NCBI RefSeq assembly: GCF_022846255.1
Contig: NZ_AP025682.1
Length of the DNA: 64,000 bases
Reading direction: 5' to 3' (one strand)
Source of the DNA: Escherichia coli
GTDB taxonomy: Bacteria > Pseudomonadota > Gammaproteobacteria > Enterobacterales > Enterobacteriaceae
Shown: positions 1,614-31,395 of the stretch, in pieces
Layout: each line of letters begins with the position of its first letter
Numbering within the stretch: position 1 is the stretch's first letter
Translations under genes and position numbers: made by a program
The notes under the pieces: model-generated
The model's input: only the letters and a program-made list of their open reading frames with translations
Databases searched by the model: none
Told to the model about the DNA's origin: nothing

Positions 1614-2570
1614 TTAGTACTCGATCCATGGATCGCGCTTGCTTTCAGGCAAGGGCTGATCTAATGCCTGCATTTGCTCTGCCGAAAGTCCGGTATATCG
1701 TTGTATCCATTCAGGATCCGCCCCATTCTGCAACAACAATCGGAGGAGGCTCTTTTCCCCTTCTTCTTTCCCTTCTTTCCTCCCCCTCTCCCTTCCCAAT
1801 AGCCATCCATCATTATGAATTCGCTCTGCAATCGTCATTATTCGCTCCCTGTGTTGTGGCATTCGACTGGTTAGTTCGCTGATAAACTCTTTAAAACTCG
1901 CTTCATCGCCAGCCAGTAAAATGTAATTTAACAGCGCAGTTATCTGGCTGTCATTAGCACACTCTGTAACCAGTAATACTACCAGTTGGTCAATAAGCCC
2001 CATCAGATCGCGCTGGCGAATATGCTTTTGGATCAACTCCAACAGGGCGACTCTGCGATGCTGCACAATCTCGTCGTCTGGCACGACAGTGATATCCACC
2101 AGCGGGAACGCGGCGGTATAAAGCTTCCGTGCGGTAGTTGGGTCGGCAAATTCGTCCAGCCAGCACAAAGACCAGGGATAAGGGCTACGGCTACCGTGAT
2201 AAAACAGCATCGGGATGACCAGCGGTAGCTGCCGGCGTTTATCATGTTCGATATGGCGCTGCATCACCGCCATGGAATATCGCATCAGACGAAAGGCCAT
2301 ATGAATATCCTCACGGCTCTGATGTTCAATCACTACATAAATATAGCCATCGCCTTCACGGGTCTTTACCGACCACAGAATATCGGAATGTAGCGCCCGC
2401 AATTTTTCATCGACAAAGCTGGCGGATTCCAGTTTTAAGCTATCGAGATCGCACAGTTCACGTAAATCTTTGGGTAAGTGGATCTCCATAAAATCCCGCG
2501 CGGTGTCAGAGTGTGTGAGAAAGGATTTAAATAATGCGTCATGCGGCGTGCTGGTCGTAAAGTTTGTCAT
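1614..2570 (-). CDS. rpnD: Rpn-family recombination-promoting nuclease (PD-(D/E)xK, YhgA-like), intact 318 aa
   Basis: Uninterrupted 318-codon ORF with a stop at 1614-1616 on the reverse strand. Product has the Rpn/YhgA-like N-terminal nuclease region. Position between yjiR and mdtM corresponds to K-12 yjiP/yjiQ. Confidence 0.8.
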
Positions 2571-3036
2571 GGCGATCCGTCACCTGTAGATAAGATGGCC
2601 CAACTTTAGCGACTAACAAAGCCATTCACACCTGGCTATTTCCTATTCCCCGAGGCGGTTTCCAGGCTATTTTTATTCTTCTGCAAACGATACATTTTTC
2701 CGGAAACAGGCTCGCATTTTACATTTCCTGTACCCGGCAGATATTCCCCTTTCCACCGCACTCTTTTGATTAACCGCAAATTTTAATTACACTTAAGGTG
2801 TATATTTTCTATGCAACCCATCAATTCAAGAGGTGTAATGTGCTGATGACTATTTGTAATCGTTATACATTCTGACCCGAAGTCAGAAGGTATTTCTCTG
2901 TCTGTGTGTTCACAGGCAGTGTGGTTGATTACATGAAATTCAGTACATTTGTCCTTCTCGCCTGCCTTTCGTCATTACCGACGGTATTGAATTTCGTTTT
3001 CCCCATTGGGGTTCTCCGGACAAGGAGTAGTTTGTT

Positions 3037-4269
3037 ATGCCACGTTTTTTTGCCCGCCATGCCGCCACGCTGTTTTTCCCGATGGCGTTGATTTTGTATG
3101 ACTTTGCTGCGTATCTGTCGACGGACCTGATCCAGCCAGGGATCATTAATGTGGTCCGTGATTTTAATGCCGATGTCAGTCTGGCCCCGGCTGCCGTCAG
3201 TCTCTATCTCGCTGGAGGCATGGCATTGCAGTGGCTGCTGGGGCCGCTTTCCGACAGGATTGGCCGCAGGCCGGTGCTGATTAACGGGGCGTTAATTTTT
3301 ACCCTTGCCTGCGCCGCGACAATGTTCACCACGTCAATGACACAATTTCTTATCGCGCGTGCAATTCAGGGCACCAGTATCTGTTTTATTGCCACCGTTG
3401 GTTATGTCACGGTGCAGGAGGCGTTCGGACAGACAAAAGGGATCAAGTTGATGGCGATTATCACCTCCATCGTACTGATTGCGCCGATTATCGGCCCGCT
3501 TTCCGGCGCAGCTCTGATGCACTTTATGCACTGGAAAGTCCTTTTTGCCATCATTGCGGTTATGGGTTTTATCTCATTTGTCGGCTTGCTGCTGGCGATG
3601 CCAGAGACGGTGAAGCGCGGCGCGGTTCCGTTTAGCGCCAAAAGCGTCTTGCGCGATTTTCGTAATGTCTTTTGCAATCGGCTGTTCCTCTTTGGCGCAG
3701 CAACCATCTCTTTAAGCTATATCCCGATGATGAGCTGGGTGGCTGTCTCGCCGGTGATCCTTATCGATGCAGGCGGCTTAACAACTTCGCAGTTCGCCTG
3801 GACACAGGTTCCGGTGTTCGGCGCGGTGATTGTCGCGAATGCCATCGTGGCGCGTTTCGTTAAAGATCCGACCGAACCGCGGTTTATCTGGCGTGCCGTA
3901 CCCCTTCAACTGGTCGGCCTCTCGCTGTTGATTATCGGCAATCTGCTGTCGCCGCACGTCTGGCTGTGGTCGGTGCTGGGCACCAGTCTGTATGCTTTCG
4001 GGATTGGTTTGATTTTCCCGACCTTATTCCGCTTTACGCTGTTTTCCAATAACTTACCGAAAGGGACCGTCTCCGCATCGCTAAATATGGTGATCCTGAT
4101 GGTGATGTCTGTCTCGGTCGAAATCGGCCGCTGGCTGTGGTTTAACGGCGGTCGCTTGCCGTTTCATCTGTTAGCCGTTTTAGCGGGCGTTATCGTCGTT
4201 TTCACCCTGGCGGGATTGCTCAATCGCGTGCGCCAGCATCAGGCAGCCGAGCTAGTGGAGGAGCAGTGA
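3037..4269 (+). CDS. mdtM: MFS multidrug efflux transporter
   Basis: 410-aa polytopic membrane protein with MFS features; synteny with yjiN. Confidence 0.9.
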
Positions 4270-4309: not shown

Positions 4310-5590
4310 ATGAATAAACTCATTGAACTCAGACGCGCCAAAATGTTGGCGCTCTCTTTACTGCTTATCGCCGCTGCTACCTTTGTCGTTACGCTGTTTT
4401 TGCCGCCCAATTTTTGGGTGAGCGGCGTGAAGGCGATTGCTGAAGCGGCGATGGTCGGCGCGCTGGCGGACTGGTTTGCGGTGGTGGCGCTGTTTCGCCG
4501 CGTGCCGATTCCGATCATTTCTCGTCATACGGCGATTATCCCGCGTAATAAAGACCGGATTGGCGAAAATCTCGGTCAGTTCGTGCAGGAAAAATTTCTC
4601 GATACCCAATCGCTGGTGGCATTGATTCGACGTCACGAACCGGCGTTGTTGATTGGCAACTGGTTTAGTCAGCCGGAAAACGCCTGCCGCGTTGGTCAGC
4701 ATCTGTTGCAGATCATGAGCGGTTTTCTTGAACTGACCGATGATGCGCGTATTCAGCGCCTGCTTAAGCGCGCAGTCCATCGGGCGATTGATAAGGTCGA
4801 TCTCTCCGGCACCAGTGCGTTGATGCTGGAGAGTATGACCAAAAACGATCGTCATCAGGTGCTGCTCGATACGCTGATCGCACAGTTGATCGCCCTTCTC
4901 CAGCGCGATAAATCGCGCAAGTTTATTGCCCAGCAGATTGTTCGCTGGCTGGAGAGCGAGCATCCGCTAAAAGCCAAAATTTTGCCCACTGAATGGCTGG
5001 GCGAACATAGCGCGGAGTTAGTTTCTGACGCGGTGAATTCTTTGCTTGATGATATTAGTCGCGATCGTGCGCATCAGATCCGCCATGCGTTTGATCGCGC
5101 CACCTTTGCCCTGATCGACAAGCTGAAAAACGATCCTGAAATGGCAGCGCGAGCCGATGCCGTAAAAAGCTATCTGAAAGAAGATGAAGCTTTTAACCGC
5201 TATCTCAGTGAATTGTGGGGGGATTTACGGGAATGGCTGAAAGCGGATATCAACAGTGAAGATTCTCGTGTGAAAGAACGTATCGCACGAGCGGGTCAAT
5301 GGTTTGGCGAAACGTTAATTGCCGATGATGCCTTGCGGGCGTCGTTAAATGGTCATCTGGAACAAGCCGCGCACCGCGTTGCGCCTGAGTTTTCCGCATT
5401 CCTGACGCGCCACATCAGCGATACGGTAAAAAGCTGGGATGCGCAGGATATGTCGCGGCAAATCGAGTTAAATATCGGCAAAGATCTGCAGTTTATCCGT
5501 GTCAACGGTACGCTGGTTGGCGGTTGTATTGGGCTAATTTTGTATTTGCTTTCGCAGCTCCCGGCCTTGTTCCCCCTCGGCAATTTTTAG
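4310..5590 (+). CDS. yjiN: DUF445-family inner membrane protein
   Basis: 426-aa ORF with N-terminal TM segments; conserved position downstream of mdtM. Confidence 0.85.
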
Positions 5591-5705
5591 AAATCCATGA
5601 AAAACTAAGTGGCTAACCGCGAGAGAGATCAAATAAACCACACTAAAAGAATGGTAATAATGTGGCCTCTTTTCATTATCTCCCGTGGTACGGGGAAGGA
5701 AAATC

Positions 5706-6857
5706 ATGTCACTTGTCACCGATCTACCCGCCATTTTCGATCAGTTCTCTGAAGCTCGCCAGAAAGGCTTTCTCACCGTCATGGATCTCAAGGAGCGCGG
5801 CATTCCGCTGGTTGGCACTTACTGCACCTTTATGCCGCAAGAGATCCCGATGGCAGCCGGTGCGGTTGTGGTTTCGCTCTGTTCCACCTCTGATGAAACC
5901 ATTGAAGAAGCCGAGAAAGATCTGCCGCGCAACCTCTGCCCGCTGATTAAAAGCAGCTACGGCTTTGGCAAAACCGATAAATGCCCCTACTTCTACTTTT
6001 CGGATCTGGTGGTCGGTGAAACCACCTGCGACGGCAAAAAGAAAATGTATGAATACATGGCGGAGTTTAAGCCTGTTCATGTGATGCAGCTGCCGAACAG
6101 CGTTAAGGACGATGCCTCGCGTGCATTGTGGAAAGCCGAGATGCTGCGCTTGCAAAAAACGGTAGAAGAACGTTTTGGGCACGAGATTAGCGAAGATGCT
6201 CTGCGCGATGCCATTGTGCTGAAAAACCGCGAACGTCGCGCACTGGCCAACTTTTATCATTTGGGGCAGTTAAATCCTCCAGCGCTTAGCGGCAGCGACA
6301 TTCTGAAAGTGGTCTACGGCGCAACCTTCCGGTTCGATAAAGAGGCGTTGGTTGACGAACTGGATGCAATGACCGCCCGCGTTCGTCAGCAGTGGGAAGA
6401 AGGCCAGCGACTGGACCCGCGTCCACGCATTTTAATCACCGGCTGCCCAATTGGCGGCGCAGCAGAGAAAGTGGTGCGCGCGATTGAAGAGAATGGCGGC
6501 TGGGTTGTCGGTTATGAAAACTGCACCGGGGCGAAAGCGACCGAGCAATGCGTGGCAGAAACGGGCGATGTCTACGACGCGCTGGCGGATAAATATCTGG
6601 CGATTGGCTGCTCCTGTGTTTCGCCGAACGATCAGCGCCTGCAAATGCTCAGCCAGATGGTTGAAGAATATCAGGTCGATGGCGTAGTTGATGTGATTTT
6701 GCAGGCGTGCCATACCTACGCGGTGGAATCGCTGGCGATTAAACGTCATGTGCGTCAGCAGCACAACATTCCTTATATCGCTATTGAAACAGACTACTCC
6801 ACCTCAGATGTCGGGCAGCTCAGCACCCGTGTCGCGGCCTTTATTGAGATGCTGTAA
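5706..6857 (+). CDS. yjiM: 2-hydroxyacyl-CoA dehydratase component D-like protein
   Basis: ATG at 5706 preceded by ggaagga; HgdB/D-component-like sequence; paired with the activator-like yjiL immediately downstream. Confidence 0.85.
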   Translation: MSLVTDLPAIFDQFSEARQKGFLTVMDLKERGIPLVGTYCTFMPQEIPMAAGAVVVSLCSTSDETIEEAEKDLPRNLCPLIKSSYGFGKTDKCPYFYFSDLVVGETTCDGKKKMYEYMAEFKPVHVMQLPNSVKDDASRALWKAEMLRLQKTVEERFGHEISEDALRDAIVLKNRERRALANFYHLGQLNPPALSGSDILKVVYGATFRFDKEALVDELDAMTARVRQQWEEGQRLDPRPRILITGCPIGGAAEKVVRAIEENGGWVVGYENCTGAKATEQCVAETGDVYDALADKYLAIGCSCVSPNDQRLQMLSQMVEEYQVDGVVDVILQACHTYAVESLAIKRHVRQQHNIPYIAIETDYSTSDVGQLSTRVAAFIEML

Positions 6858-6860
6858 GGA

Positions 6861-8813
<1,953 letters not shown>

Positions 8814-8880
8814 CAGGCTGGCATGTTTCACCTTTTTGTTATTAACTTGTTAACAGCAAAAATGACAAACAAGGTTAAAC

Positions 8881-10059
8881 ATGCCTTCGCCCTCGCATCC
8901 CGTAGAACGCTTTTCTTTCAGCACCGCGCTTTTCGGGATGCTGGTTCTGACCTTAGGTATGGGTTTAGGCCGCTTCCTTTATACACCTATGTTGCCCGTC
9001 ATGATGGCGGAAGGATCGTTCTCATTTAGCCAGCTCTCGTGGATTGCCAGCGGCAACTATGCGGGGTATCTGGCTGGCAGTCTGCTATTTTCTTTTGGCG
9101 CATTTCACCAGCCATCGCGCCTGCGCCCATTTCTGTTGGCTTCTGCCCTGGCGAGCGGGTTGTTGATCCTCGCAATGGCATGGTTGCCGCCATTTATTCT
9201 GGTGTTATTGATTCGCGTCCTGGCGGGTGTCGCCAGCGCCGGAATGCTGATTTTTGGTTCGACGCTGATTATGCAGCACACGCGCCATCCTTTTGTGCTG
9301 GCAGCTTTGTTTTCTGGCGTTGGCATTGGCATCGCACTGGGCAATGAATATGTTCTGGCAGGCCTGCATTTTGACCTCTCCTCGCAAACGTTATGGCAAG
9401 GCGCCGGGGCGCTTTCTGGCATGATGCTGATTGCACTTACGCTTTTAATGCCCTCGAAAAAACACGCCATCACACCAATGCCATTGGCAAAAACGGAGCA
9501 ACAGATAATGAGCTGGTGGTTACTGGCTATTCTGTACGGCCTGGCGGGATTTGGTTATATCATCGTCGCAACTTACCTGCCGCTCATGGCGAAAGATGCA
9601 GGCTCACCATTGTTAACCGCCCATCTCTGGACGTTAGTCGGCTTATCAATTGTGCCTGGTTGCTTTGGCTGGCTATGGGCAGCAAAACGTTGGGGGGCTT
9701 TGCCCTGCCTGACGGCGAATTTGCTGGTGCAGGCTATTAGTGTGTTGCTTACTCTCGCCAGCGACTCGCCTCTCTTGCTTATCATCAGCAGTCTTGGTTT
9801 TGGCGGTACCTTTATGGGCACGACATCTCTGGTGATGACTATCGCCCGCCAACTGAGCGTACCGGGAAATCTCAATCTTTTAGGCTTTGTGACGCTCATT
9901 TACGGCATTGGGCAAATTCTTGGCCCGGCGCTGACCAGTATGCTTGGCAATGGAACATCGGCGCTTGCCTGCGCCACTCTCTGCGGCGCGGCGGCGTTGT
10001 TTATTGCTGCGCTTATCAGCACAGCGCAATTATTTAAGCTGCAAGTGGTCACTTCATGA
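8881..10059 (+). CDS. yjiJ: MFS-type membrane protein (DUF1228 family)
   Basis: 392-aa polytopic membrane protein in the conserved position. Confidence 0.85.
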
Positions 10060-23181: not shown

Positions 23182-24324
23182 ATGAAGATAGTTATCTCCC
23201 CCGACTCCTTTAAAGAATGCCTTCCTGCATGGAAAGTCGCCGAAGCGCTGGCAACCGGCTGGCGCAAGGTCCTGCCTGGCAGCCAACTGGTGTGTTTGCC
23301 CGTGGCTGATGGCGGCGAAGGCACGCTCGAAACACTCATTCATGCGACTGACGGTACGTTTTACACTAAAAAAGTCACCGGACCGCTTGGCGAATCAATA
23401 CATGCGCAATACGGTATTTTAGGCAACCAAACCACCGCAGTGATAGAACTGGCACAAGCTTCAGGGCTGGAACTGGTTTCTCCTGTCCAGCGTTCTCCCC
23501 TTTATACGACGTCGTTTGGCACTGGCGAACTTATTCTCGCCGCCCTGGAACACAATATTGATACCGTTATTCTATGCCTGGGTGGCAGTGCTACAAATGA
23601 TGGCGGTATTGGGTTGATGTCGGCACTTGGCGCATCGTTTACAGACGCCGAAGGGCTATCAGTCTCTGTTAATGGGATGGGGCTGGCGGCAATTCACCAC
23701 ATTGACTTACAGCACCTCGATCCACGATTGAAAAATGTGAAATTTATTGCGGCCTGTGATGTCACCAACCCACTAACCGGCGATAACGGCGCGACCCGGG
23801 TTTTTGCTCAACAAAAAGGGGCCAGTGCTAACGACCTTGAGCAACTGGAACAGGGAATGAAAAACTATGCCCGTTGCATCTACCGTTGTTGTGGTAAAGA
23901 CGTCGATACGATACCCGGTTCTGGGGCGGCTGGCGGCGTTGGCGCGGCCTTGATGGCTTTTCTCGATGCTCGCTTACAACCGGGTATTTCGCTCGTGCTG
24001 GAAGCGATTCAATATACCCAACATTTAAAATACGCAGCATTGGCCATTGTCGGTGAAGGGAAATTAGATAGTCAGAGCCTGAATGGCAAAGCGCCCGTAG
24101 GCGCAGCCAAAGTTGCCCAGATGATGGGCGTTCCGGTTATCGCAATTGCCGGGTATATCGATGATCAACTTGATCTGAATGAGTTACGCCAGTGTGGAAT
24201 AGAAGCCTGTTTTTCCGTCGTCAATGGTCCTTGTGATTTCCCCACCGCGCTGAGTCAGGGAGAAAATAATTTAATTCGTCTTGGGGAAAATCTGGCGGGA
24301 TATTTTCGTGCGATCCTGAGTTAA
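23182..24324 (+). CDS. glxK: Glycerate kinase
   Basis: 380-aa glycerate kinase-family protein (MKIVISPDSFKE...LPVADGGEGT...); last gene of the gcl-hyi-glxR-glxK operon. Confidence 0.75.
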   Translation: MKIVISPDSFKECLPAWKVAEALATGWRKVLPGSQLVCLPVADGGEGTLETLIHATDGTFYTKKVTGPLGESIHAQYGILGNQTTAVIELAQASGLELVSPVQRSPLYTTSFGTGELILAALEHNIDTVILCLGGSATNDGGIGLMSALGASFTDAEGLSVSVNGMGLAAIHHIDLQHLDPRLKNVKFIAACDVTNPLTGDNGATRVFAQQKGASANDLEQLEQGMKNYARCIYRCCGKDVDTIPGSGAAGGVGAALMAFLDARLQPGISLVLEAIQYTQHLKYAALAIVGEGKLDSQSLNGKAPVGAAKVAQMMGVPVIAIAGYIDDQLDLNELRQCGIEACFSVVNGPCDFPTALSQGENNLIRLGENLAGYFRAILS

Positions 24325-24379
24325 TTCCCGTTCGTTAAAATGCCCGATAATGCAAATTACCGGGCATTCCTGAATATCA

Positions 24380-25906
24380 TTATTCATCTCTCGCGGTTTT
24401 CTCTTCAGCCGCAAGCTGTGTCAAAAAACTCTTCAATAAAATAAACACTACGCCGCAAAGCGGTAGTCCGGCCAGGATAGAGACCGTTTGTAGCGGCTGC
24501 AAACTCTGCGCATCAAGAAGATAGAGTGTGATGGCGACGATTCCAGTCATAATCAACCAAAATGCCACGTTCCAGAATGCCGGTTCACTCTCACTATCTG
24601 CCCGTTTTTGCGTCGCAAAACCGAGGGCATAACCCACAGTACAGTGTCCGGTAATATATGAAATTAATGCTATAGCCCCAAAAGCAACCAAAAACACCTG
24701 ACTTGCGGGTAGCTGCTCCAGTAAACGAGAAACGACAACGCCTCGCCCTTGTTCGTTAAGTATGGGAACAAAATCGATGACATGAGTTGTCTGCAACGAT
24801 AAGCCGAAATTAGCCAGTACCATGTAAAAAAACATGCATCCCAATGAACCTGCCAGAGCTCCACATACAATCAATTGCCGGATCGTCCTTCCTTTTGAAA
24901 TACGGGCGATAAATAAACCGAATGGGATGGCATACACGACCCACCATGAAAAATAAAATACGGTCCACATCTGTGGAAATCCGCTACGACCAATAGCATC
25001 GGTACTTAAACTCATCGCTACAAAATTTTGCAGCATCAGGCCGAGACCATCAATTGATTGATTAAGTATAAATGCCGTTGGTCCACAAATCAGTATTGCA
25101 AGTAGCATCAAAATGTCAGCACGAATATTCCAGTTACTGGCCCATGCCACACCTTTTTTAAGTCCAAAAAAGAGAATGAATAATGGCACTAGCGTCCAGA
25201 TAAAAATAACCATGACATTGATAAACTGCCCGGCAGGATCCAGATGAAACACATGGCAAAATACGGCAGAAATCATCGGCGTTCCCAGCGCCAGAGACGT
25301 TACCGCGCCGCCGAGCAAACCAAACATGTAGAAAAAATTCACACAATGCCCGCAAAAACCATCCGCACGCGCTCCCAAACATCCACGACATAAATCACTG
25401 ACCTTTAATGAGTTTGTTTTCTTAACATGCATAAACCAACCAATAGGAACGGCACAAATCAGATACCACGCCCATGCGGACGGCCCCCAATGGAACATGC
25501 CATAAGCAGAGGCCCAACGAGCAGCCTGAGCGCTTCCTGCTGTTGCGCCAAAAGGCGGTTGCTGAATGATCCAAATCCACTCTACAGAGGCCAGATATAA
25601 CAAGCTGCCCCCCGTTCCAGAAGTAAAAATAAGTCCAAGCCAGGTTAACAAGCTGAAGTCAGGTTTTTCTCCCGACTGACCTAACAAGATATCGCCATAA
25701 CGTGAGAAGGCCAGCCACAGACAACAAAGTACAACCAGAAAAATCCCGCCCATTTCCCAGGTTAAAAAATGATGTATTTTATTTATATACCGGCTGGTAT
25801 CTTGTGGATATATCGTCAAACACAGAATGATTACCGCAATAAATAATATTGCTGGGATAAACACATTCAGTTCAATCAAAGAAAAGCGTTTTTTTAAATA
25901 TTGCAT
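24380..25906 (-). CDS. BCCT-family transporter (betaine/carnitine/choline type)
   Basis: Polytopic protein with a BCCT-like signature (WTVFYFSWWVVYAIPFGLFIARISKGRTIRQ). The start is placed at the internal ATG 25904-25906, which has an aggag SD; the track ORF extends to 26032. Confidence 0.7.
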   Translation of the reverse strand: MQYLKKRFSLIELNVFIPAILFIAVIILCLTIYPQDTSRYINKIHHFLTWEMGGIFLVVLCCLWLAFSRYGDILLGQSGEKPDFSLLTWLGLIFTSGTGGSLLYLASVEWIWIIQQPPFGATAGSAQAARWASAYGMFHWGPSAWAWYLICAVPIGWFMHVKKTNSLKVSDLCRGCLGARADGFCGHCVNFFYMFGLLGGAVTSLALGTPMISAVFCHVFHLDPAGQFINVMVIFIWTLVPLFILFFGLKKGVAWASNWNIRADILMLLAILICGPTAFILNQSIDGLGLMLQNFVAMSLSTDAIGRSGFPQMWTVFYFSWWVVYAIPFGLFIARISKGRTIRQLIVCGALAGSLGCMFFYMVLANFGLSLQTTHVIDFVPILNEQGRGVVVSRLLEQLPASQVFLVAFGAIALISYITGHCTVGYALGFATQKRADSESEPAFWNVAFWLIMTGIVAITLYLLDAQSLQPLQTVSILAGLPLCGVVFILLKSFLTQLAAEEKTARDE

Positions 25907-25929
25907 TTCAGTCTCCTGAATGTTTTCAT

Positions 25930-26154
25930 TCAATGAGGACGAATATTTCGCCGTTCCTTTTTCATGTGTTGCAATTGTCGGGAAAGGCGTAAAGAAAAAA
26001 AGGCGCAAATAAGTGAAAGAGCCGCAATACAATACAGAGCTAAACCACGCTGATGCTGTTGCAGCATGAACAGGAATATCCCCAAAAAGAGGCCGCAGAG
26101 AACTGTGGTTATCCAGTAATTGGCACTTAAGTGCTCCAGGTCATCATCCCTCAT
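25930..26154 (-). CDS. Small 2-TM membrane protein (74 aa) immediately upstream of the BCCT transporter gene
   Basis: ATG at 26152-26154 (reverse strand) preceded by aggaga; stop 23 nt before the BCCT start; two hydrophobic helices. Codon-by-codon reading places this ORF on the minus strand although the supplied track labels it +. Confidence 0.5.
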   Translation of the reverse strand: MRDDDLEHLSANYWITTVLCGLFLGIFLFMLQQHQRGLALYCIAALSLICAFFSLRLSRQLQHMKKERRNIRPH

Positions 26155-26206
26155 GGTCTTTCTCCTGCAAGGCGCAGACAGGCTTTCAGCTCTCTGCGCC
26201 TTGTTG

Positions 26207-27601
26207 TTATGCCAGACGTACGCCCTGCTGTTGCAGCGTGTTTTGCAAATCAGGGATAGCAACCTGACGCACGGTGCAATTTTGCTGTAGCGAAACCACG
26301 GCGGCAGTACCTGCGGCCTCACCGGTAACGGCACAACACATCATGTTACGCATAGAAGTATGTGCAACTACGCCTGCGGAAATACAGCGACCGGCGACCA
26401 AAAGGTTCTCCACTTTTTGCGGCACCAGACAACCATAAGGGATCTGAAAGAAACGCCCGGTCGTTGGCAAAATGAGATAACCGGAACCATCAATAAATTC
26501 CGGGAAAATCCCTACACTGTCCGAACAACGCCCCTGATTAAGGACGTAATCATCAGCAATACGTATTTCCCCCTCAATAAGCCGTGATTCACGCGTCCCC
26601 AGCGTGGCACCAAAATTGCGTAACCGTACATTTTCAAAGCCCGGAACATAATGGCGTAGAGCGTCAATTGCCCATAATGCTTGCTGCCTTCCGGCAATCT
26701 CAGCTTTGGTTAAATCGAAGACATCGGTACAGTCAAAACCAAAGGCGTACACCATATTCATCTGGAAAGCCTCACCGCTTTCAGAAAAGGTCGACCAGGT
26801 TCCGGCAATCGCCTGGGCGTCACCTGGAATCACACCATCCTGTTGCGCGCGGGTAAAAATATCCTCCATATACGGGCTAAACATCGGGTCTTCTTTACCC
26901 GTGGTTTGAATCGTCCAGTTTTTGCCCCAATCCGCGTAGGTCGGCTTAAGTTCTTCCGCAACAAAACGGTTAAAGCGTGCCACATCAACACCTGCGCAAC
27001 TGAACATCACGGTGACGCCCATCAGTTGGTCCTTGCTCCGTTTCGTCCAGGGCGCGCCTGCACGAGCGGCAATATCAGCATCCCCCGTGCAATCGACGAT
27101 TCTTTTCGCCAGAATTGCCCCTCGACCTGATTTATTCTCGACGATAACACCGCATAACGTATTCCCGTCCTTGATCACGTCCACAACCCAGGAGTGATAT
27201 AACGGCTCAACGCCAGATTCCGTAATCATCTGATCGGCGACAACTTTAAATCCTTCAGTATCTATAACTTCGCTAATTGACTGAGGTTCTGGTCGTGTGA
27301 AGCCCAATGCTCGCGCGCGGCCTTCATATTCACGACAAATCCCTTCACAATCTTCCGTCCCCGGATGGCGATACCAGGCAAAACTTTCCACACCAACCTG
27401 CGTCAATACGCCGCCTAGTGAGCCGTAACGCTCAACAATCATGGTTCTGGCACCTAGCCGCCCCGCCGCTATCGCCGCCGTTAATCCTGCCGGACCGCCC
27501 CCGATAACCAGAACGTCCGTTTGTGCAATGACTGGCGTTTGCCGTGCACTTTCATTAATCATGTCCACCATTGGTTCCCCCGTCAGATTCAGGATGCGCA
27601 A
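26207..27601 (-). CDS. FAD-dependent oxidoreductase, paralogue B
   Basis: N-terminal VLVIGGGPAGLTAA FAD-binding motif; paralogue of 15683..17053. The start may be one of the downstream in-frame ATGs, because 27589..27601 overlaps the MFS gene. Confidence 0.8.
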   Translation of the reverse strand: MRILNLTGEPMVDMINESARQTPVIAQTDVLVIGGGPAGLTAAIAAGRLGARTMIVERYGSLGGVLTQVGVESFAWYRHPGTEDCEGICREYEGRARALGFTRPEPQSISEVIDTEGFKVVADQMITESGVEPLYHSWVVDVIKDGNTLCGVIVENKSGRGAILAKRIVDCTGDADIAARAGAPWTKRSKDQLMGVTVMFSCAGVDVARFNRFVAEELKPTYADWGKNWTIQTTGKEDPMFSPYMEDIFTRAQQDGVIPGDAQAIAGTWSTFSESGEAFQMNMVYAFGFDCTDVFDLTKAEIAGRQQALWAIDALRHYVPGFENVRLRNFGATLGTRESRLIEGEIRIADDYVLNQGRCSDSVGIFPEFIDGSGYLILPTTGRFFQIPYGCLVPQKVENLLVAGRCISAGVVAHTSMRNMMCCAVTGEAAGTAAVVSLQQNCTVRQVAIPDLQNTLQQQGVRLA

Positions 27602-28857
27602 TCCGCATTGTTTTGAGTGATTTCATTGACTTGATTTTTACTTTTACGATTCACACGCTGGAGGACCAGTGCGGCGATAAGGCCGATGAATGCGCAAACC
27701 AACATGAACAGGAAAACATCCTGATAACCGGCAATACCCGGTTTGCGGTCGACCATATTGCCCACCATCGTGTAGCAGTAGATTTCCGGGAAATAGGTCA
27801 GTAAAGAGATCAGACCCGCAGCAGTCCCTGTGACTTTTGCCGGGATCCGAACCTCATCAATAATTGAGAAGAACACGGCATTCGCAGAGTAAATAAACAC
27901 GCCCAACGCAACCATATTCGCCAGCGCAATAGTGACGTAGCGCGACTCACCGGGCAGGAAGAAATAAACGGTAGTAAAGACAATCATGCCGATAAAGGCG
28001 TAAATCATAAAACGCGTGCGTGACGCACAGCGGTCGGCCAGTTGTCCGCCAATTAATCCCCCCATCGCAAATAACACATAGGCGCGAAGAATACTGGCAA
28101 CTGCCACTTCCGATTCGCCCATATGCAGGATCTGCGTGAGATACGGCGTGACCATGCCAAAGCCGATATAAATTGACCACATACAAAAGGTCACAACACC
28201 TGCCAGCCAAACCGTCGGCATTTTCAGCACGAATGCCATATCTGCCAGACGGAAATTCGCTTTATCTTCGCTGTGCGTTTCATCCTGACAAACAAACCAG
28301 GCTAAAACACCGGCCAGAATAGTCACTACGGAATAAAAAATAATTGTCGCCCGTAAACCATCAACACCTTCGCCAAATTTGGCAAATACCGGCACGGAAA
28401 GAAATCCCAGTACAATGGAGGTTAATCCCTTACCCAGAAACCAGTAACCGTATAAGCGACCTTGTTCTTCGCTGGTTCCCAGGGTACGAATAATTCGCAC
28501 ACACACGGCCCAAAACGTAAATACGGTTGTAACAGCCCAAAGTGCATGTAACAAACAGATCATGGTATACGAGGGGAAGGTCGCATAATAAAAACCACTT
28601 ATCCCGGTGGAAATTAATGAAAAGGTCATTAATTTACGTGCAGAAAATCTATCGGCAGCCCAACCGCCAGGTAGATATAATAAAAAGTTCACCAGACCAT
28701 AGGCTGTCATTAGAAAACCAAGTTCAGCATTAGTCGCTCCTGTAGCCTGCTGCATCGCGTCGTAATAGGTTTCCCGTAAATAAGGCAATTTATATATTGC
28801 ACTTCCGGCAATACCACATAACGCCAGCGTGATCCAACGTTTCCAGTTACTGGTCAT
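27589..28857 (-). CDS. MFS transporter
   Basis: 422-aa 12-TM-type protein; first transporter of the gldA-like / MFS / FAD-oxidoreductase / BCCT minus-strand gene string. Confidence 0.75.
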   Translation of the reverse strand: MTSNWKRWITLALCGIAGSAIYKLPYLRETYYDAMQQATGATNAELGFLMTAYGLVNFLLYLPGGWAADRFSARKLMTFSLISTGISGFYYATFPSYTMICLLHALWAVTTVFTFWAVCVRIIRTLGTSEEQGRLYGYWFLGKGLTSIVLGFLSVPVFAKFGEGVDGLRATIIFYSVVTILAGVLAWFVCQDETHSEDKANFRLADMAFVLKMPTVWLAGVVTFCMWSIYIGFGMVTPYLTQILHMGESEVAVASILRAYVLFAMGGLIGGQLADRCASRTRFMIYAFIGMIVFTTVYFFLPGESRYVTIALANMVALGVFIYSANAVFFSIIDEVRIPAKVTGTAAGLISLLTYFPEIYCYTMVGNMVDRKPGIAGYQDVFLFMLVCAFIGLIAALVLQRVNRKSKNQVNEITQNNADCAS

Positions 28858-28922
28858 ATTTATTCCCGAATGAAGTATTTAAAATGACACCAACGGCCTG
28901 CTTTGCACAGGCCGTATTATTT

Positions 28923-30005
28923 TTAAAGTCCCAAATGATGTGCAGTTAAAATTGCACAAAGAACGTCCTGCGCTGTTACTACGAATGGCATATTATGGAT
29001 AGTTTCCCCTTCAGCAGTCGCGGCTTTAGCCACTGCCCGTAATTTATCTTTATTAATTTCCTTCACGCCTAACATATGAAGATTTGTCGGCAAGCCAACG
29101 CTATGGCAGAAATTGAGTACGGTTTCAATTTCCTCCTGTGGTGCGTTTTCCAGTACGAGCTGTACCAGGACGCCAAATGCCACTTTTTCACCGTGGTAGC
29201 AATGATGGCATTCCTCCAGTTGCGTCATGCCGTTATGAATGGCATGAGCTGCCGCCAGGCCGCTACTTTCAAATCCAATGCCGCTAAGATAGGTATTAGC
29301 TTCGATAATATTCTCTACCGCTTTGGTGCTAACACCTTGTTCAACCGCGACTTTTGCCTTATAGCCATCTTCCAGTAGCGTGGTATAACAGAGTCGGGCA
29401 ATAGCCAGTGCCGCCAGTGTCGACGCCCCACCTGCCATTGTGGCTTTTCCTGACGCCTGATTGGCTCTCGCCTCAAACCAGGTTGACAATGCATCTCCCA
29501 TACCGGCCACCAGCAGACGCACTGGCGCGGCTGAAATGACGCCAGTATCCATAATCACCATATCCGGGTTTTTCGGGAAAAACAGATATTCGCTAAACTG
29601 ACCTTCCGGGGTGTAAATTACCGCCAGAGAACTGGTTGGCGCATCTGTGGAAGCAATTGTCGGCACCACCACCACCGGAATTTTTTGGTAATACGCTACG
29701 GCTTTTGCCGTATCCAACGTTTTACCGCCGCCAATACCAATAACGACATTATATTTACGCTGATTAAATTTCTCACGAATTCGAGAAATTTCATTTTGCG
29801 AGCATTCACCACAAAAGATATCAAAATCTGCAGTAATATTTTCTTTTGCAAAGCTCTGGCTTACTCTGTCACCCACCAGACCGGTCACAAATTCATCTGC
29901 AATAATTAATGGTTCTGTTCCCAAACTCGCCGCATATGTAGCAATATTATCCAGAGAACCATTTCCCTGGATATATTTAGCCGGACTTATAATAATCTTA
30001 TCCAT
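28923..30005 (-). CDS. gldA: Glycerol dehydrogenase-like iron-containing/group III polyol dehydrogenase
   Basis: 360 aa with GldA/DhaD-family motifs (GGGKTLDTAKA, metal-binding His cluster); divergent from dhaKLM. Symbol denotes a paralogue. Confidence 0.75.
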   Translation of the reverse strand: MDKIIISPAKYIQGNGSLDNIATYAASLGTEPLIIADEFVTGLVGDRVSQSFAKENITADFDIFCGECSQNEISRIREKFNQRKYNVVIGIGGGKTLDTAKAVAYYQKIPVVVVPTIASTDAPTSSLAVIYTPEGQFSEYLFFPKNPDMVIMDTGVISAAPVRLLVAGMGDALSTWFEARANQASGKATMAGGASTLAALAIARLCYTTLLEDGYKAKVAVEQGVSTKAVENIIEANTYLSGIGFESSGLAAAHAIHNGMTQLEECHHCYHGEKVAFGVLVQLVLENAPQEEIETVLNFCHSVGLPTNLHMLGVKEINKDKLRAVAKAATAEGETIHNMPFVVTAQDVLCAILTAHHLGL

Positions 30006-30324
30006 ATCATTCCTCGCGTAACTTGTTTTGCTTCACTGTTAACCTACTCGTTGCATCCAGTAGCGGCAAACATTTCATTCGCGAAAAATTATGTTTTATG
30101 ATCGCGCTGTAAAAAACATCATCTGCAGATGATAATAAAAAACACTTTTCATGCCTTAATCACAATATATCAATATCCACGCTGGTCCCATTTCATTTTG
30201 GAACAACACAATGAATTAACTGTTTCATTATGAATCTTATTATCGTGCGATTTGTTTTATTGCGGCTGGAGAATTAATCTCGCAAGCATATTTAGCGCGA
30301 TTTACGTAATTTATCAGAACAGGA

Positions 30325-31395
30325 ATGACTATGAAGAAATTAATTAACCAGATTGATTCTGTTGTCACAGAACAAATGGAAGGACTCATCGCCACCTGGC
30401 CACACCTGCAGGCAAATTACGCGCCCCGATATGTGTGGTGCAAACAAACCGATAATGCAGTGGCGCTGATTTCAGGCGGCGGCTCAGGCCATGAACCACT
30501 GCATGCAGGTTTTGTCGGTATGGGAATGTTAACCGGTGCATGTCCTGGTGAAATCTTCACATCGCCCACACCAGATCAAATGATCGAATGTGCCAAAGCG
30601 GTTGATAATGGTTCTGGCGTTCTGTTTTTCATCAAAAATTACACTGGCGATATTCTGAATTTCGAAACGGCAGTCGAGATGTTACACGAAGAAGGCATCG
30701 CCGTTGGGACCGTCATTATTGATGATGATGTAGCGGTAAAAGATAGCCTGTATACAGCCGGACGTCGCGGTGTTGCGGGTACAGTTTTTGTTGAAAAGAT
30801 TGTCGGTGCGGCTGCACTTCAGGGATATAACCTGGGGCAGTGCGAGCAACTTGGCAAAGATGTTAACAATGCCACCCGTTCTTTTGGCATCGCACTGTCA
30901 GCCTGTACGGTTCCCGCCGCGGGAAAACCCTCATTTGAACTGGCTGATAATGAAATCGAATTTGGTGTCGGGATCCACGGTGAACCCGGCATTGAACGCC
31001 GCACTTTGCAAGATCTGAACACTTTAATCGACAGCGTGATAGCGCAATTACTGGATAATACCCCCTGGCGACGCACATTACGCCATTGGGATCGCCATGC
31101 GGGGGGATGGATTGACGCATCATCAATGAATGAGTCATTCGATCAAAATGCCGAATATATTGTGTTAATTAACGGACTTGGCAGCACGCCTGAATCAGAG
31201 TTATATGGTGTAGCCAGGGTATTTATGTGCGCCGCACAGCGCCAGGGAATTAAAATTAGCCGCCAGTTGGTCGGTAATTATTGTACATCATTAGATATGG
31301 CCGGATTTTCCATTAGCCTGCTGAAATGTACCCCAGAGTTTTTGCAACTTTGGGATGCCCCGGTCAATACGCCAGCGCTTCGTTGGGGATGTTAA
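30325..31395 (+). CDS. dhaK: Dihydroxyacetone kinase, substrate-binding subunit DhaK
   Basis: 356-aa DhaK-family protein (GGGSGHEP motif). Confidence 0.8.
   Translation: MTMKKLINQIDSVVTEQMEGLIATWPHLQANYAPRYVWCKQTDNAVALISGGGSGHEPLHAGFVGMGMLTGACPGEIFTSPTPDQMIECAKAVDNGSGVLFFIKNYTGDILNFETAVEMLHEEGIAVGTVIIDDDVAVKDSLYTAGRRGVAGTVFVEKIVGAAALQGYNLGQCEQLGKDVNNATRSFGIALSACTVPAAGKPSFELADNEIEFGVGIHGEPGIERRTLQDLNTLIDSVIAQLLDNTPWRRTLRHWDRHAGGWIDASSMNESFDQNAEYIVLINGLGSTPESELYGVARVFMCAAQRQGIKISRQLVGNYCTSLDMAGFSISLLKCTPEFLQLWDAPVNTPALRWGC

Follow-up and report, generated by a model that had tools for sequence, protein, structure and literature searches.

Does the 300-nt interval between the stop codon (26207) of a flavin adenine dinucleotide (FAD)-dependent oxidoreductase gene and a BCCT-transporter gene in an Escherichia coli catabolic operon hold a further gene, and, if so, what might its product do? 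The question is raised by a 64,000-nt stretch of E. coli contig NZ_AP025682.1 (RefSeq assembly GCF_022846255.1), hereafter the window, in which 225 nt of this interval are occupied by a minus-strand open reading frame (ORF) at 25930-26154. The pattern of its evolution indicates that this small ORF is almost certainly a genuine protein-coding gene. The operon to which it belongs, GimA2, has the order cglD, cglT, cglE, small gene, cglC, and of these five genes it alone has no name. On the evidence of sequence searches, its product belongs to a family of ~75-residue proteins of Enterobacterales and Vibrionaceae that is undescribed in the literature searched.

The small ORF runs on the minus strand from an ATG at 26154-26152 to a TGA at 25932-25930 and encodes the protein MRDDDLEHLSANYW...RRNIRPH. 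Its stop codon lies 23 nt from the ATG of the BCCT gene (25906-25904), which has an equally spaced AGGAG of its own. An AGGAG or GGAGG-like sequence is found at the position equivalent to the Shine-Dalgarno sequence of the small ORF in five of the six lineages compared. An earlier reading of the window made from the sequence alone (the sequence-only reading) had proposed this minus-strand ORF, with the same start codon, a Shine-Dalgarno sequence and a stop 23 nt ahead of the BCCT start, and its coordinates were reproduced. It had also reported that the enclosing ORF was listed on the plus strand. That label could not be reproduced: the ORF listing gives 25930..26334 as minus, and the only plus-strand ORFs that overlap the region are two short, unrelated ones (26120..26290 and 26131..26259).

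Read from a GTG that lies within the upstream gene, the enclosing frame would yield 134 aa; this extension is uninterrupted in E. coli alone. Each of the five other lineages has the frame closed at a distance of 4-20 codons before the ATG. Within that distance four lineages lack any alternative start, and Pluralibacter offers a single in-frame start codon located 7 codons ahead of the ATG. Since the extension is closed in the other lineages, the ATG at 26154 is the conserved start. The 134-aa GTG-initiated ORF was also considered as the true product and was rejected, as its extension is not conserved. As many as 62 ORFs of at least 40 aa are listed in 8 kb, so that length alone is not evidence for a gene; the small ORF exceeds chance expectation because it is conserved.

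E. albertii, Pluralibacter and two metagenomic enterobacteria carry homologs of the small ORF (66-81% identity), and the order MFS transporter, FAD oxidoreductase, small ORF, BCCT is common to these loci. A sixth, more divergent metagenomic lineage, represented by locus L009, retains the order, with a small protein that is 40% identical as against 82% for the FAD oxidoreductase. Pairwise Nei-Gojobori estimates of the ratio of nonsynonymous to synonymous substitution rates (dN/dS) for the small ORF are 0.05-0.14 over five lineages, with synonymous sites near saturation; those of the neighboring genes are 0.02-0.08. The corresponding ratio of the proportions of such differences (pN/pS) is 0.24 in the frame of the small ORF versus 1.14 and 1.70 in the other two frames, and variable sites are distributed over codon positions 1, 2 and 3 as 33, 21 and 60. 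Within E. coli, the ORF of strain L023 differs from that of the window by six synonymous changes and one non-synonymous change. Conservation across homologous loci, which the sequence-only reading had set as one check of its proposal, was thus found, in the form of purifying selection specific to the frame. This confinement of selection to one frame, together with a conserved start and Shine-Dalgarno sequence and ~50 homologs of the same length in five genera with invariant residues, argues against the view that the ORF is an untranslated spacer open by accident, which could appeal to the omission of its coding sequence (CDS) by the NCBI annotation pipeline (PGAP) in about two thirds of the genomes sampled and to the lack of a Pfam or NCBIfam match; we regard that view as highly improbable and, on the evolutionary data, effectively refuted.

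Frameshifted variants recur at a T7 homopolymer within the ORF. The cerebrospinal fluid isolate N41 has T6 instead of T7 and would make a 63-aa product, and the C-termini of four database variants (P0009, P0010, P0012 and P0014) are shifted in the same way. Sequencing error and slipped-strand variation are candidate causes.

The locus is the GimA island (ibeA), and the whole island lies within the window. Positions 5915-46215 align to strain LF82 over 40 kb with 98.9% identity, and the small CDS of LF82 (4681417-4681641) falls inside the published GimA coordinates, 4673091-4693405 (PMC7545054). The island comprises 20.3 kb between iraD (yjiD) and hypT (yjiE), with uxuRBA and the fim operon beyond its flanks. 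In the LF82 annotation the order is nhaC, ibeA, dhaR; gcl, hyi, a glxR-like reductase, glycerate kinase; BCCT, small ORF, FAD oxidoreductase, MFS, glycerol dehydrogenase; dhaK, dhaL, ptsP. The GimA genes of the window are ibeT/nhaC, ibeA, ibeR/dhaR, gcl-hyi-glxR-glxK, cglDTEC and dhaK-dhaL-ptsP. GimA has been described as four operons, ptnIPKC, cglDTEC, gcxKRCI and ibeRAT, with 14 ORFs counted (PMC2878320), and elsewhere as 15 genes (PMC4359115). From gene order we infer that cglD, cglT, cglE and cglC are the glycerol dehydrogenase, MFS, oxidoreductase and BCCT genes, respectively. As the cgl names are taken by these four genes, the small ORF corresponds to no named GimA gene.

The region is matched in 246 of 5426 complete E. 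coli genomes, at 95-99% identity. Among 60 genomes evenly spaced within these 246, 19 carry the PGAP CDS WP_001204018.1, a 'hypothetical protein', which is also present in L001 and LF82. Strain IHE3034 (L021, 2506-2805) encodes the identical protein and strain SMS-3-5 (L022, 2508-2807) has an intact ORF for a two-substitution variant, and the CDS is absent from both RefSeq records. In each record a locus-tag number is skipped exactly at the small ORF (RS24910 in IHE3034, RS24440 in SMS-3-5), which suggests that the CDS was perhaps called earlier and then withdrawn. The ORF had been described as unannotated-looking and as one of a kind that gene callers often miss. Its inconsistent calling bears out the second description; the first holds for the many genomes in which the CDS is omitted but not for the databases, where WP_001204018.1 is already present. 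No mention of the accession WP_001204018, the locus tag LF82_RS23090 or a description of the gene was found in the literature searched, and a tblastn search against plasmids returned nothing beyond the query's own record, which carries no annotation. The sequence is therefore already in databases, and the family, its motif, its membership in GimA and the coupling to DeoR genes described below are undescribed in the literature searched.

The 74-aa product is a predicted inner-membrane helical hairpin. The Kyte-Doolittle profile with a 19-residue window peaks at 2.14 (residues 13-31) and 2.24 (residues 37-55), and AlphaFold2, run with a 52-sequence alignment, places helices at residues 3-32 and 38-71 with a mean pLDDT (predicted local distance difference test) of 72. 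Hydropathy and structure prediction thus both give the two helices proposed in the sequence-only reading. The C-terminal tail has seven K/R residues against one D/E (family means 5.1 and 1.6), and the interhelix loop has family means of 5.7 residues and 0.3 K/R. Because of this charge distribution, both termini, an acidic N-terminus and a strongly basic C-tail, are predicted to be cytoplasmic, with a periplasmic loop of ~6 residues. A Foldseek search of the predicted hairpin against the PDB returned generic helical hairpins alone, none at E <= 0.001.

Profile searches of 1.84 billion representative proteins and then of a 5.8-billion-protein collection identified ~50 relatives of 69-92 aa, all 'hypothetical', with profile E-values of 1e-10 to 1e-31. 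The genera represented are Escherichia, Pluralibacter ([Enterobacter] lignolyticus), Serratia, Vibrio and Photobacterium. In the 52-sequence alignment (A4), N12, Y13, W14 and T17 are invariant, H8, L24 and L57 are conserved in at least 90% of the members, and C20, G21 and K65 are strongly conserved as well. Conservation is densest at residues 4-27, that is, in the juxtamembrane segment and the first half of helix 1, and weak in the loop and tail. The consensus is D-x-L-x-H-[AL]-R-A-N-Y-W-I-[LV]-T-x-L-C-G-x-F-L, with the motif N-Y-W-x-x-T at the cytoplasmic entry of helix 1; the window protein is a member by these features and departs from the consensus at position 10 (S, not R). Searches of Pfam, NCBIfam, PHROG and PDB sequences gave no family match, only scattered sub-threshold hydrophobic hits. 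A scan of a genome collection with a narrower alignment found eight loci, and a degenerate DNA pattern for H-x-R-A-N-Y-W-I-L-T found three in metagenomes, all of the Photobacterium type.

The gene neighborhoods of the family members differ between genera. In two Serratia genomes and one Serratia-like contig, the small gene follows a DeoR-family gene with an ATGA overlap or a 19-nt gap. In Vibrio aestuarianus and a Vibrionaceae metagenome-assembled genome, it is the last gene of an operon comprising Dak1/Dak2, MFS, a Zn-dependent alcohol dehydrogenase, an unassigned gene and DeoR, the latter overlapping the small gene by ATGA. Photobacterium sp. DA100 (L027) has the same operon, preceded by a gldA-type Fe-dependent alcohol dehydrogenase gene divergent from dhaK-dhaL, an arrangement that mirrors the frame of the E. 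coli locus. The MFS proteins of the Vibrio operons are homologous to CglT (tblastn E 1e-46 to 1e-47), and that of L027 is MFS_1 by Pfam. The order is LamB, DeoR, small gene in Vibrio sp. ES.051 and LamB, small gene in V. ruber. In four Photobacterium species the small gene follows a LysE exporter gene (three species; L016, L018 and L020) or stands alone (one). Between the Zn-dependent dehydrogenase and DeoR genes of the Vibrio and Photobacterium operons, a conserved protein of ~275-284 aa without a Pfam match is encoded (L015, 4312-5166; L027, 7329-8156).

Seven loci have a DeoR-small gene pair, joined by an ATGA overlap in five, by TAATG in one and across the 19-nt gap in one (L010). The regulators of these pairs contain HTH_DeoR and DeoRC by Pfam, and across the pairs the identities of the two proteins co-vary, at 26-75% for DeoR and 29-77% for the small protein. 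Since the flanking genes differ (AegA-like/ferredoxin; Dak/MFS/Zn-dependent alcohol dehydrogenase; LamB), the pair behaves as a module. In S. fonticola it lies shortly before gcl, hyi, glxR, a DhaR-like regulator, BCCT and FAD oxidoreductase genes, and the BCCT and FAD oxidoreductase proteins are 58% and 79% identical to those of GimA; the gene set is the same, rearranged. The sequence-only reading had asked whether the ORF is conserved upstream of BCCT homologs in other genomes. It is in the Escherichia/Pluralibacter-type clade and at L009, but not in Serratia, Vibrio or Photobacterium; the idea that the small hydrophobic protein is co-encoded with a solute transporter holds at GimA, where the BCCT gene follows. 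Members of the family thus recur alongside dha, glyoxylate and polyol catabolic loci, most often directly beside a DeoR gene; placement ahead of BCCT is a trait derived in a single clade.

In the interval that separates the cglE stop codon from the Shine-Dalgarno sequence of the small ORF, the transcript can form a stem-loop. The 76-nt stretch that contains it has a folding energy of -24.9 kcal/mol (z -3.3 versus shuffled sequences). The five other lineages have a hairpin at the equivalent position, with a stem sequence that is different in each and z-scores of -2.1 to -4.2. An Rfam search of 24000-30500 gave no match, and a terminator scan did not call the stem-loop, which is probably an intercistronic processing or stability element.

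What does the small protein do? We tentatively favor a role as an accessory subunit of a secondary transporter of its own locus, a proposal that we hold to be plausible but well short of probable. The membrane-embedded small subunit would bind the locus-encoded transporter and support or tune its activity. In E. coli the favored partner would be the BCCT transporter CglC, itself a possible but doubtful assignment, and it is preferred because the two genes are 23 nt apart and lie jointly downstream of the conserved intercistronic hairpin; the MFS transporter CglT is a second candidate with a slim chance of being the partner. Several observations are consistent with such a role. Six lineages, L009 among them, share the order FAD oxidoreductase, small ORF, BCCT, and in all six the hairpin stands between the genes upstream and the last two of this series. 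Elsewhere the family shows adjacency to LysE (Photobacterium) and a co-operonic MFS gene (the Vibrio and Photobacterium catabolic operons). There is also precedent in small proteins with two transmembrane segments that are needed for adjacent LeuT-fold permeases (bioRxiv 10.1101/072470).

Other observations weigh against this role. No transporter family is a constant neighbor of the small gene, and its commonest immediate neighbor outside Escherichia is the DeoR regulator gene rather than a transporter gene. The BCCT gene of S. fonticola has its own 300-nt upstream region without an adjacent small ORF, with the family member 6 kb away, where its start overlaps a DeoR stop codon, and the Vibrio and Photobacterium members have no BCCT gene within 6-9 kb. 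The BCCT transporters DddT, CaiT and BetP are structurally homotrimers, and the DddT paper mentions no accessory subunit. Finally, a test for a single conserved helical face was not significant for helix 1 (p 0.45), the result that counts here, nor for helix 2 (p 0.11), and for this reason no defined packing face is claimed.

The prominence of the DeoR pairs raises a serious rival explanation, namely that the small protein is a regulator-linked membrane partner whose ancestral role was played together with the translationally coupled DeoR-type repressor. At the membrane it might serve to tether the repressor or to modulate it, or it might exert a second negative control, on transport. The copy in E. 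coli would then be an orphan that has been redirected to a different cytoplasmic partner, for example IbeR/DhaR or components of the Dha kinase. The small gene directly follows DeoR in seven Serratia-type, Vibrio and Photobacterium loci, the pairs show ATGA overlaps and co-varying identities and stay together amid differing flanking genes, and the most conserved part of the small protein is the juxtamembrane segment that faces the cytoplasm. GimA, however, has no DeoR gene, and yet the E. coli small gene is under strong purifying selection; an adjacent DeoR gene is also missing in four Photobacterium loci, V. ruber and P. frigidiphilum, and no DeoR-small fusion occurs among the hits, all of 69-92 aa. 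To our knowledge there is no earlier case of a microprotein with two transmembrane segments that controls a DeoR repressor, which also counts against this explanation, and on balance we judge it possible but unlikely.

Its boldest form is a new regulatory module, in which a translationally coupled two-helix microprotein holds or modulates a DeoR-type repressor at the membrane; this we consider quite unlikely. If it were true, transcription of dha, glyoxylate and polyol loci would respond to transport or to the state of the membrane, and the microprotein of GimA, an island of meningitis-, poultry- and Crohn's-associated E. coli, would have been uncoupled from DeoR and moved ahead of the BCCT gene.

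A third explanation links the small protein to the oxidoreductase, as a CglE anchor or electron-transfer adaptor that recruits the flavoprotein to the membrane and perhaps forms a quinone site from the conserved H, N, Y, W and T at the cytoplasmic interface. The 52-nt spacing of the small gene downstream of the FAD-dependent oxidoreductase gene in six lineages would fit this idea, as would a CglE N-terminus without a transmembrane segment or signal peptide, the location of Serratia-type members two genes downstream of an AegA-like flavoprotein and a ferredoxin-like protein, and the invariant polar and aromatic residues at the membrane interface. But the conserved hairpin intervenes between cglE and the small gene, the small ORF of L004/L005 is intact and constrained beside an oxidoreductase in three pieces, the orthologous FAD oxidoreductase of Serratia (79% identity) is not beside the small gene, the paralogous IbeA has no such partner gene, and the Vibrio and Photobacterium contexts lack the oxidoreductase altogether, all of which make the anchor improbable.

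A holin-like or toxic membrane peptide unrelated to operon metabolism is suggested by the size, the two transmembrane segments, the N-in/C-in topology and the basic C-tail, which resemble those of class II holins, but it is extremely improbable and effectively excluded by a PHROG search with no match for the window protein and three weak hits (E > 0.001) among 52 members, by the metabolic contexts, with no phage or toxin-antitoxin genes in E. coli-type loci, and by long-term purifying selection within catabolic operons. The probability left over by these readings falls to a function not yet conceived.

The features of the window and the equivalent elements at other loci are collected in the table below.

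Table. Coordinates of the small gene, its neighbors and corresponding elements at other loci.
Sequence	Feature	Coordinates	Strand	Remarks
Window	Small inner-membrane protein CDS (predicted)	25930..26154	minus	225 nt including stop, 74 aa; unnamed gene between cglE and cglC, GimA operon 2
Window	Shine-Dalgarno AGGAG of small ORF	26162..26166	minus	7 nt 5' of ATG
Window	T7 homopolymer in small ORF	25995..26001	minus	Codons A51-F52-F53-S54
Window	RNA stem-loop	26168..26203	minus	No U-tract
Window	cglC, BCCT transporter gene	24380..25906	minus	508 aa; Pfam BCCT E 3.8e-115; immediately downstream of small ORF
Window	cglE, FAD-dependent oxidoreductase gene	26207..27571	minus	454 aa; Pfam PF12831 E 2e-97; same-length PGAP CDS in L001
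Window	cglT, MFS transporter gene	27589..28857	minus	Same operon; Pfam MFS_1
Window	cglD (gldA-like), glycerol dehydrogenase gene	28923..30005	minus	First of operon; NCBIfam glycerol dehydrogenase E 1e-168
L007	Equivalent hairpin	7955-7985
L002	Equivalent hairpin	7958-7981
L004	Equivalent hairpin	7954-7987
L006	Equivalent hairpin	7958-7981
L009	Equivalent hairpin	2551-2575
L015	DeoR gene before family member	5255-6189
L017	DeoR gene before family member	5243-6189
L024/L025	DeoR gene before family member	8273-9234
L027	DeoR gene before family member	8294-9228
L019	DeoR gene before family member	5273-6198
L010	DeoR gene before family member	2074-3040

The small ORF is immediately preceded by cglE, across a gap of 52 nt. 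The closest solved structures to CglC are DddT (E 5e-96) and CaiT. The cglC gene of the window has a 15-nt deletion (residues FLVMT, five codons in frame) at ~25741/25742, codon 55/56 on the minus strand, which lies within an early hydrophobic transmembrane helix, between direct repeats TTTCTGGT. None of the 246 complete E. coli genomes with GimA lacks these 15 nt, so that the deletion is peculiar to the window strain; the transporter may be impaired.

Several related loci show lesions or insertions of their own. The GimA cglD of E. coli 2022H047 (L001, 9940-11021) is annotated as a frameshifted pseudogene. At L006 (8226-8446), an insertion of ~220 nt with internal inverted repeats lies between the small ORF and the Shine-Dalgarno sequence of the BCCT gene, and both genes are intact. 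At L004/L005 the FAD oxidoreductase is broken into three ORFs (6584-7945), beside a small ORF with low dN/dS, and in the interval 8250-8295 the conserved start codon of the BCCT gene is ATA, not ATG.

GimA, an island associated with virulence in neonatal-meningitis, avian-pathogenic and adherent-invasive E. coli, has been studied for a long time and is always described as having 14-15 genes. The cgl operon has an additional conserved gene that is unnamed and missing from most RefSeq annotations. Work on cglE or cglC by deletion, polarity or complementation may for this reason have disturbed the small gene without anyone being aware of it. The catalog of small membrane proteins gains a family with a sharp motif and two recurrent gene partnerships, with BCCT and with DeoR. 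The finding should be useful to researchers working on GimA and to catalogs of small proteins; it is unsurprising in kind.

Among known systems, YjcH/DUF485 (PF04341) with ActP is similar in that a small inner-membrane protein with two transmembrane segments is encoded immediately upstream of a LeuT-fold transporter gene in a catabolic operon. According to mutant fitness data, YjcH/DUF485 is needed for the ActP permease (bioRxiv 10.1101/072470). In contrast, the GimA protein has no PF04341 match (the family is not among its 11 sub-threshold Pfam hits at E <= 1), the gene downstream encodes a BCCT transporter (or the partner would be an MFS transporter) rather than an ActP-like SSS permease, and the adjacency of the family to transporters is not constant. 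DUF4212 (PF13937/TIGR03647) was recognized as the small subunit of a sodium:solute symporter from its hydrophobicity and context, and then from cofitness (bioRxiv 10.1101/072470). It resembles the GimA protein as a small hydrophobic protein for which a role as a transporter subunit was deduced from gene context, but the GimA protein has no match to it in Pfam or NCBIfam, and the gene context of DUF4212 is far more constant.

Other comparisons concern small membrane-protein modulators of transporters and a small protein of a polyol operon. KdpF, AcrZ, MgtS, MgtR, SgrT and CydX are hydrophobic proteins of less than 100 aa, often unannotated, that bind large membrane complexes and tune them. Unlike the GimA protein, most of them have one transmembrane segment and none contains N-Y-W-x-x-T; binding of the GimA protein to a partner is a proposal. 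GutM (PF06923) is a 119-aa protein with one hydrophobic N-terminal segment that is encoded upstream of the DeoR-family repressor gene srlR in the glucitol operon. It recalls the DeoR-small pairs of Serratia, Vibrio and Photobacterium as a small protein beside a DeoR-type regulator in a polyol operon, although the GimA protein has no PF06923 match at E <= 1 and GimA has no DeoR gene. By sequence the small protein belongs to none of these families; in its proposed mode of action it most resembles the small subunits of LeuT-fold or other secondary transporters, or the wider class of small membrane-protein modulators.

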